Shown here in pieces: positions 13,015 through 14,967 of a DNA stretch of 64,000 nucleotides. The notes under the pieces are model-generated. The model made no database searches, was not told the origin of the DNA, and saw nothing but the letters and a program-made list of their open reading frames with translations. A program made the position numbers and the translations under genes. How positions within the stretch are numbered: position 1 is the stretch's first letter; each line of letters opens with the position of its first letter. Source of the DNA: Acidobacteriota bacterium (lineage in GTDB: Bacteria; Acidobacteriota; Vicinamibacteria; Vicinamibacterales; UBA2999); the NCBI GenBank assembly GCA_016789705.1, contig JAEUQR010000005.1, positions 67,153-131,152 on the forward strand, read 5' to 3'.

Positions 13015-14406
<1,392 letters not shown>

Positions 14407-14412
14407 GAGAAC

Positions 14413-14967
14413 GGCCGCAGTGAGCCGGATGACCGCCGCGACGAGCAACCGCGCAAGCGAAGTACTCGGCGGGGAGGAAAGTCCGAACTCCGCAGGGCAG
14501 TGCGCCGGGTAACACCCGGGCGGGGCGACCCGACGGAAAGTGGCACAGAAAATATACCGCCCGTCTTCGCTCTGGGCGCCCGAGTCGGAACGGCCATTTG
14601 TAACGGGGTCTGTCACGGTCACGAGATGTCTCCCGTTCGTGACCGTGACAGACCCCGTTACAAATGGCAGTCGATCGACAACTCGGGCATCGAGAGCGAA
14701 GGCGGGTAAGGGTGAAAAGGTGCGGTAAGAGCGCACCGCGCGGCTGGCAACAGACGTGGCAGGCCAAACCCCGCACGGAGCAAGACCAAATAGGGGCGCG
14801 CTGGCTTCGGCCAATCGGACGGCCCGTCCGATCGACGTGTCCGGGTAGGTTGCTCGAGTCCGTCAGTAATGGCGGACCTAGAGGAATGGTCATCACGCCA
14901 GAGCCGGCGCGCCGCAAGGCGCGACGGCGATGGCGGACAGAATTCGGCTTACAGGGTCACTGCGGCC
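14413..14967 (+). ncRNA. rnpB: RNase P RNA, bacterial type A, with expanded P12
   Basis: Conserved type-A blocks: GGAGGAAAGTCCG (14473-14485), ACAGAAAATATACCGCC, GTAAGGGTGAAAAGGTGCGGTAAGAGCGCACCG, AGCAAGACCAAATAGGGG, GGGTAGGTTGCT, and ACAGAATTCGGCTTACAG. An 11-bp P1 pairs 14413-14423 with 14957-14967. Confidence 0.9.
14593..14668. repeat. perfect 32-bp inverted repeat (12-nt loop) at the apex of rnpB P12
   Basis: GCCATTTGTAACGGGGTCTGTCACGGTCACGA (14593-14624) is the exact reverse complement of 14637-14668. I verified this base by base. Confidence 0.95.

Follow-up and report, generated by a model that had tools for sequence, protein, structure and literature searches.

An interspersed hairpin repeat as the probable tip of the P12 helix in a Vicinamibacterales RNase P RNA

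In the 64-kb stretch of DNA analysed here (the window), the tip of the P12 helix of RNase P RNA is very probably one copy of a genome-wide interspersed repeat that would spread in the manner of REP/REPIN or TIR repeats, a reading to which we give a probability of about 0.8. At the P12 apex, two units of ~28 nt (A-N-TT-GTAACGGGGTCTGTCACGGTCACG) converge on a short loop, and such a doublet is expected to fold as a long perfect hairpin in single-stranded DNA or RNA. Because the element is itself a hairpin, its effect is simply a coaxial lengthening of P12; the rnpB gene would have remained functional, and the insert would have been passed on as the lineages split. P12 lies at the periphery of the specificity domain. 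Some bacteria can dispense with it or lack it altogether, and we know of no universally conserved nucleotides in it.

Results

rnpB carries a long P12 arm with a perfect palindrome at its tip

An Rfam cmscan of the window returned a single match above the gathering score, RNaseP_bact_a, at 273.5 bits (gathering score of RF00010, 100 bits). The match runs over the full length of the model (positions 1–367) and contains the conserved P4, J11/12 and P10–P14 blocks, which places the gene among type-A RNase P RNAs, as a previous reading of the sequence alone had proposed. That sequence-only reading gave a gene of 555 nt, which cmscan corrects to 551 nt (Table 1). It also described a P12 arm of ~146 nt, and we find 145 nt between ACCGC and GTAAGGG; the model alignment places ~118 extra nt within P12. 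No Rfam family was found for the P12 insert, and a permissive E-value gave only generic miRNA-precursor hairpin models, all far below their thresholds.

The P12 arm folds as one hairpin (MFE −119.9 kcal/mol, z = −14.7), and this hairpin is unchanged in the predicted fold of the full 551-nt RNA. Its base is imperfect, as had been noted from the sequence (14560–14585 with 14681–14706, 26 nt paired at 85%), and its apex is the exact inverted repeat described at the same time, with arms of 32 bp and a loop of 12 nt. The inverted repeat extends to 35 nt at 97% and found a match in 0 of 100 shuffles. The palindrome had been called visibly less GC-rich than its flanks, a difference that we recover in weak form (55–60% in 40-nt windows across the palindrome vs. 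65% for rnpB). An intrinsic terminator inside rnpB was ruled out: there is no T-run after the hairpin, and all conserved blocks continue downstream.

Table 1. Features of the rnpB region, in window coordinates
Feature	Position	Strand	Basis or description
NtrX-like sigma-54 response regulator, synteny anchor	13015–14406	+	Translation; homologues named NtrX or sigma-54-dependent regulator
rnpB, bacterial type-A RNase P RNA	14417–14967	+	551 nt; RF00010, 273.5 bits, E = 3.3e-88
Complete P12 arm, 145–146 nt, one continuous hairpin	14561–14706	+	cmscan and fold
Native P12 basal stem, 5′ strand, CCGTCTTCGCTCTGGGCGCCCGAGT	14561–14585	+	Arm of imperfect inverted repeat
Irregular linker, 5′ side	14586–14592	+	Alignment of window, L014, L015 and L016
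Palindrome left arm	14593–14624	+	Exact reverse complement of 14637–14668
Repeat unit proper, left arm, ATTT + GTAACGGGGTCTGTCACGGTCACG	14596–14623	+	Equals family consensus
Loop, 12 nt, GATGTCTCCCGT	14625–14636	+	Between palindrome arms
Palindrome right arm	14637–14668	-	Repeat unit inverted, 14638–14665
Irregular linker, 3′ side, AGTCGATCGACA	14669–14680	+	Forms internal loops in fold
Native P12 basal stem, 3′ strand, ACTCGGGCATCGAGAGCGAAGGCGGG	14681–14706	+	Inverted-repeat arm; conserved in L014–L016

The palindrome is one member of an interspersed family of repeats

We scanned a database holding one genome per GTDB species with the 24-nt core common to the window and to three related rnpB genes (L014, L015 and L016, described below). 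The core was found at no fewer than 80 loci, and seven Acidobacteriota/Vicinamibacterales MAGs, each contributing many loci, account for all the matches listed. The consensus of the 237–239 units at the loci listed, A-N-T-T-GTAACGGGGTCTGTCAC(G/c)GTCAC(g/c), equals both arms of the window palindrome. The 38-nt spacing of the window doublet is found in other convergent pairs as well (L045, L049, L056, L058, L073 and L097), and the whole 76-nt palindrome aligns with L056, L049, L045 and L097 at 90–92% over 70–73 nt, the differences lying in the loop. Even the terminal CCATTT...AAATGG of the window copy is found again at other repeat loci, and the motif TGTCTCCCGT of its loop stands between units of L067 and L093 too. 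Related genomes thus hold both further copies and, as described below, repeat-free P12 helices, the two things for which the sequence-only reading had proposed to search.

Almost all units belong to convergent hairpin doublets or to nested 2+2 hairpins. Among the 95 clusters listed, 35 are simple convergent pairs (><), 17 are arranged as >><<, 16 as >>< and 10 as ><<, the remainder being single units (11) and same-orientation pairs (<< or >>, 6). Convergent arrangements therefore make up 78 of the 95 clusters, and every cluster that contains both orientations is convergent. Single units are found too, as are nested ones and tandem units repeating every 28 nt. The convergence of the units, their tandem period of 28 nt and the lack of spacers ruled out a CRISPR array.

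The clusters also have a preferred genomic position, 51 of 69 (74%) lying no more than 40 nt beyond the point at which an ORF of ≥150 aa stops, as against 14% of random placements. Outside the unit, the flanks are complementary to each other over 2.8 bp on average (L018–L097), compared to 0.78 bp in permuted controls, and over up to 10 bp at L024. Thus, the elements tend to sit inside slightly larger palindromes, which suggests that the repeat inserts into pre-existing hairpins, for example the loops of terminators.

As the sequence-only reading had stated, the 64-kb window contains no second copy, also when matching is relaxed (0 further copies of the 32-mer with up to 3 mismatches, of a 17-mer with up to 3 or of a 12-mer with up to 1, and none in a whole-window repeat scan). 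Counting the extra clusters around the matches (95 clusters, 80 loci, 595 kb), we estimate a density of ~1 cluster per 40 kb. At this density a lone copy in 64 kb is unremarkable and does not mean that the palindrome sequence is unique. The family appears to be abundant, REP-like and undescribed in Vicinamibacterales.

Occupied and empty P12 helices occur in syntenic relatives

To place the insert among orthologous rnpB genes at known distances, we used contigs encoding eleven NtrX homologues. NtrX homologues form a graded series from 100% to ~80% identity, those with names being from Vicinamibacterales (Acidobacteriota) MAGs, and the gene order ligA-htrA-ntrX-rnpB-amidohydrolase-epimerase is conserved down to ~80% NtrX protein identity. 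The ntrX stop codon and the start of rnpB are separated by 11 nt only (14406–14417). With this spacing and the conserved gene order, transcription of rnpB by read-through from ntrX is a possibility.

Table 2. P12 length and repeat content in the window and its relatives, from alignments of syntenic rnpB genes and direct extraction, with ntrX divergence from the window
Sequence	P12 (nt)	Window repeat	ntrX DNA identity	Third-codon divergence
Window / L014	145 / 146	Present	97.2% (L014)	7.6% (L014)
L015, L016	117	Present	94.0%, 94.1%	15.9%, 15.5%
L001, L002, L004–L013, L017, L223–L227	41	Absent	93.8% (L004), 93.2% (L001)	16.2% (L004), 18.3% (L001)
L003	15	Absent	88%
L100	18	Absent
L098	32	Absent
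L099	103	Absent
L102	139, near-palindromic	Absent

The RNAs of syntenic relatives with a P12 of 15, 18, 32 or 41 nt are otherwise nearly identical to that of the window, and all of these P12 helices are free of the repeat (Table 2). One of them, L223 (contig JBIKUN010000044.1), has an empty 41-nt P12 and belongs to MAG JBIKUN01, the source of 12 repeat loci; abundance of the family in a genome can thus go together with an unoccupied P12. The repeat-bearing P12 was found in three other independent assemblies, L014 (JGI), L015 (ENA) and L016 (NCBI), where it shows small natural variations: an A·C mismatch in the stem of L016 and a G·U pair at the outermost position in L014.

Where did the doublet enter? 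The 41-nt allele reads ...GGCGCC-CTCG-GGTGTC... and the L015 allele ...GGGCGCC-CGAG[TTGTAAC...GTTACAA]CTCG-GGCGTC..., so that the doublet occupies the apical tetraloop (4 nt) of the native P12 hairpin. The 41-nt allele differs in the basal stem too; the loci compared include no strictly isogenic empty site, nor does one appear in metagenome contigs, which gave 0 matches to the window-type P12 base (ACCGCCCGYCTTCGCTCTGGGCGCC). The P12 base CCCGCCTTCGCTCT.. recurs in P12 helices that lack the repeat, namely those of L099 and several metagenome contigs. Since the outgroups L003, L098, L099, L100 and L102 (5 of 5) have a P12 without the repeat, parsimony favours a gain in the lineage leading to the window, L014, L015 and L016.

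On these sequence comparisons, insertion of a palindromic element into a tolerant peripheral helix is supported. The sequence-only reading had called this insertion recent: the family copies, the empty P12 helices and the tetraloop site uphold the insertion itself, and "recent" is too strong a word for an insertion shared by lineages ~16% diverged at third-codon positions. It had also considered that relatives might carry a homologous extension with compensatory substitutions, which would indicate an old structural expansion; the relatives that share the extension have identical arms and show no compensatory changes.

Around the core hairpin, L015 and L016 have a different loop and lack linker segments of 13 nt (5′ side) and 18 nt (3′ side), which are bounded by the direct repeats TTGTAACGG and ACAA. 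Each linker of the window differs from that of L014 at 2 positions, and the 3′ linker is fast-evolving; a third difference from L014 on the 3′ side, at 14668, falls on the outermost palindrome pair. On the 5′ side, 14582–14592 corresponds to GAGTTGTAACGG of L014, which, judged by its sequence, resembles the beginning of an outer unit in truncated form. Two histories fit the linkers: a nested cluster that has partly decayed, or slippage that removed the linkers in L015.

Other parts of rnpB vary on their own account. The P3 helix (14436–14472) is mosaic, the window version being identical to that of L003, whose ntrX DNA is only 88% identical; in the alignments, L014, the closest relative, has the version of the L004 group, unlike the window. 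Either rnpB has recombined internally or one of the assemblies is a strain chimera. Near the 3′ end, a peripheral hairpin at 14895–14935 is an insertion relative to the Rfam model; it contains many differences between L015 and L016 despite 99.3% ntrX identity, pairing being apparently kept, and is another hypervariable outer helix of rnpB. The L014 contig (2,800 nt) ends inside rnpB shortly past the P12 hairpin, a point at which short-read assemblies may be interrupted by the repeat or by the conserved core.

The arms are conserved beyond the neutral expectation

Because the repeat is common to lineages that are ~16% diverged at third-codon positions, its insertion predates their split and, judged from the sequences, is not very recent. 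The arms of the window and L015 nevertheless show 0 differences in 54 positions (Poisson P = 2e-4 against the third-codon rate), and the window and L014 show 1 in 76 (P = 0.02). The loop and linker segments differ freely among the window, L014, L015 and L016. If the insert were purely passive and neutral, 0 differences in 54 arm positions would not be expected; taken at sequence level, the identity of the arms speaks for either continuing constraint or homogenisation with copies elsewhere in the genome.

Constraint would be expected if the insert had been co-opted and the hairpin kept by selection, either as a protein-binding or stabilising module or as a duplex excised by RNase III to leave a two-piece RNase P RNA. 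The free variation of the loop and linkers beside near-invariant arms fits this account, as does the persistence of the insert in two diverged lineages, and at 32 bp a perfect duplex has the length that RNase III requires. However, identical arms are explained equally well if the many copies in the genome convert the insert or new copies replace it repeatedly, and sister lineages do well with a P12 of 15–41 nt. We thus regard co-option as unlikely. A related proposal, in which some use of the 32-bp duplex maintains the perfect arms, whether RNase III excision (a split RNase P RNA) or a docking site shared with mRNA 3′-end hairpins, draws on the same arm conservation and seems to us about as unlikely.

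Discussion

Mobilisation and origin of the P12 insert

What could mobilise such a family? We infer that a transposase of the HUH/Y1 class (RAYT or TIRYT type) would act on its members in the form of single-stranded DNA hairpins, because they form hairpin doublets, lack target duplications, cluster extragenically and are placed within palindromes. The same combination is described for REPs and for acidobacterial TIRYT repeats (PMC3733652). The preferred landing sites would be the loops of pre-existing hairpins. A wider proposal, which we consider unlikely, is that the family homes into such loops in general, with structured-RNA genes as natural traps. A search for a RAYT transposase among 4,923 ORFs (window and L001–L097) gave 0 matches, a weak test given that the phmmer seed was an approximate E. 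coli YafM-like sequence. By Pfam, the nine ORFs flanked by repeats included no transposase and were ordinary genes.

A multi-copy element of 76 nt consisting essentially of two inverted repeats could also be a classical MITE, that is, a non-autonomous element derived from a DDE insertion sequence, bounded by terminal inverted repeats and moving by cut and paste. Such an origin should leave target-site duplications, and the repeat copies show none, with no excess of direct flank repeats at any offset from 0 to 9 for k = 3–5. Moreover, the single, tandem (28-nt period) and nested units resemble REP/BIME clusters more than MITEs, and a related insertion sequence was not seen in the repeat loci. 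We therefore consider a MITE improbable.

Alternatively, P12 might have grown by structural evolution of the RNA, its apex being perfected by template switching, a known route to perfect quasi-palindromes, or by inverted duplication. The helix is certainly hypervariable in this group: in 102 distinct sequences, obtained from 120 metagenome rnpB loci by a J11/12 pattern scan, complete P12s range from 11 to 185 nt (the shortest entries being cut by contig ends), and long near-palindromic P12s occur that lack the window repeat (e.g., L102, L207 and L123). The window repeat itself was absent from all 102. However, the apex in the window is identical to the consensus of a family with at least 80 loci elsewhere, mostly downstream of protein genes, which independent structural evolution cannot generate, making this origin very improbable. 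An assembly artefact (a fold-back or strain chimera inside a conserved gene) is scarcely credible: the window apparently comes from a metagenome-type assembly and its P3 match to the more distant L003 could indicate chimerism within rnpB, but the same P12 architecture, with natural variants, recurs in L014, L015 and L016, so that this doubt of the sequence-only reading falls away, and the palindrome lies mid-contig (64 kb), flanked by a matching basal stem. An interspersed, REP-like repeat inserted in the P12 loop remains the reading that we favour.

Two of these P12s are of interest in themselves. L207, a contig from an unrelated lineage, contains a different perfect palindrome of ~25 bp (TGAAAAAGGGGTACGACCCCTTTTC / GAAAAGGGGTCGTACCCCTTTTTCA, 12-nt loop), perhaps a different hairpin repeat that inserted there independently. 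The P12 of L123 contains palindromic motifs (GGGGTCAGACCCC / GGGGTCTGACCCC) like the variant units found beside the repeat family (e.g., at L034, L041 and L064).

These P12 helices constitute a natural experiment on an essential ribozyme: sister P12s of 15, 41, 117 and 145 nt are carried by otherwise nearly identical RNAs, and the series shows how much the periphery of the specificity domain can absorb. It also exposes an apparently undescribed REP-like family in Vicinamibacterales, a major and poorly studied group of soil Acidobacteriota, and makes rnpB an orthologous, universally present locus for dating and tracing the family. Targeting of hairpin loops, a testable property of repeats driven by HUH transposases, is suggested by the flank complementarity and by the exact placement of the insert in the P12 loop. 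On the practical side, inserts of this kind make rnpB longer and can interrupt contigs, as in L014, or mislead annotation.

Comparison with known repeat systems

The closest parallels in arrangement are the RAYT-mobilised REP and REPIN elements (Bertels & Rainey 2011, PMC3116915; PMC3337134). As in these, short inverted unit pairs form a hairpin (with exact 32-bp arms in the window), and the family is multi-copy, extragenic and mostly located just after genes; REP/REPIN elements reach tens to hundreds of copies per genome, compared to at least 80 loci in seven related MAGs and one copy in the 64 kb of the window. The lack of target-site duplication, the clusters and the nested arrays are likewise shared with REP/REPIN elements and BIMEs. 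A REP unit is an imperfect palindrome with a 5′ GTAG (or CGTC) tag (PMC3733652). Unlike it, the unit of the window family is not self-palindromic (a single unit folds at −2.6 kcal/mol) and starts with GTAA (conserved TTGTAAC) rather than GTAG. Since both the self-palindromic unit and the GTAG tag are missing, we describe the family as REP-like and do not file it as REP. It further differs from REP/REPIN elements in its spacer of only 12–17 nt, in that no RAYT was found in the sampled DNA (window and L001–L097, approximate seed), and in the position of the window copy inside an essential RNA gene.

TIR repeats with TIRYT tyrosine transposases, notable in Acidobacteria, form dimers and clusters like REPs (Di Nocera et al. 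2013, PMC3733652); many share the motif GGGGWSAS, and REPs are found within larger palindromes (PMC3733652). The window family has the same host phylum and flanks with extra complementarity, and its unit contains GGGGTCTG, one mismatch away from GGGGWSAS, some variant copies having GGGGTCAG. Unlike for TIR repeats, no TIRYT gene was located in the sampled loci, and Vicinamibacterales lie outside the 2013 survey.

Hairpin inserts in essential genes have precedents of other kinds. The intervening sequences of 23S rRNA are hairpins inserted in helices and are excised by RNase III, as the window insert might be. Rickettsia palindromic elements (RPEs) occur in coding genes (PMC3733652) and, unlike the insert in rnpB, are translated in frame. 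The window insert is like both in placing extra hairpin DNA in a surface-exposed, tolerant part of an essential gene.

Full-text searches of the literature found no report of REP or palindromic elements in RNase P RNA or of acidobacterial P12. Short tandemly repeated repetitive (STRR) sequences were reportedly described by Vioque in 1997 (reference 108 of PMC2858038) in the rnpB P12 of heterocyst-forming cyanobacteria. The phylum and the class of repeat are different, tandem heptamers there and a hairpin doublet here. Yet in both cases a genome-wide repeat family is lodged and tolerated in P12 of a type-A RNase P RNA, and the STRR heptamers are the closest precedent for a repeat family in this helix.
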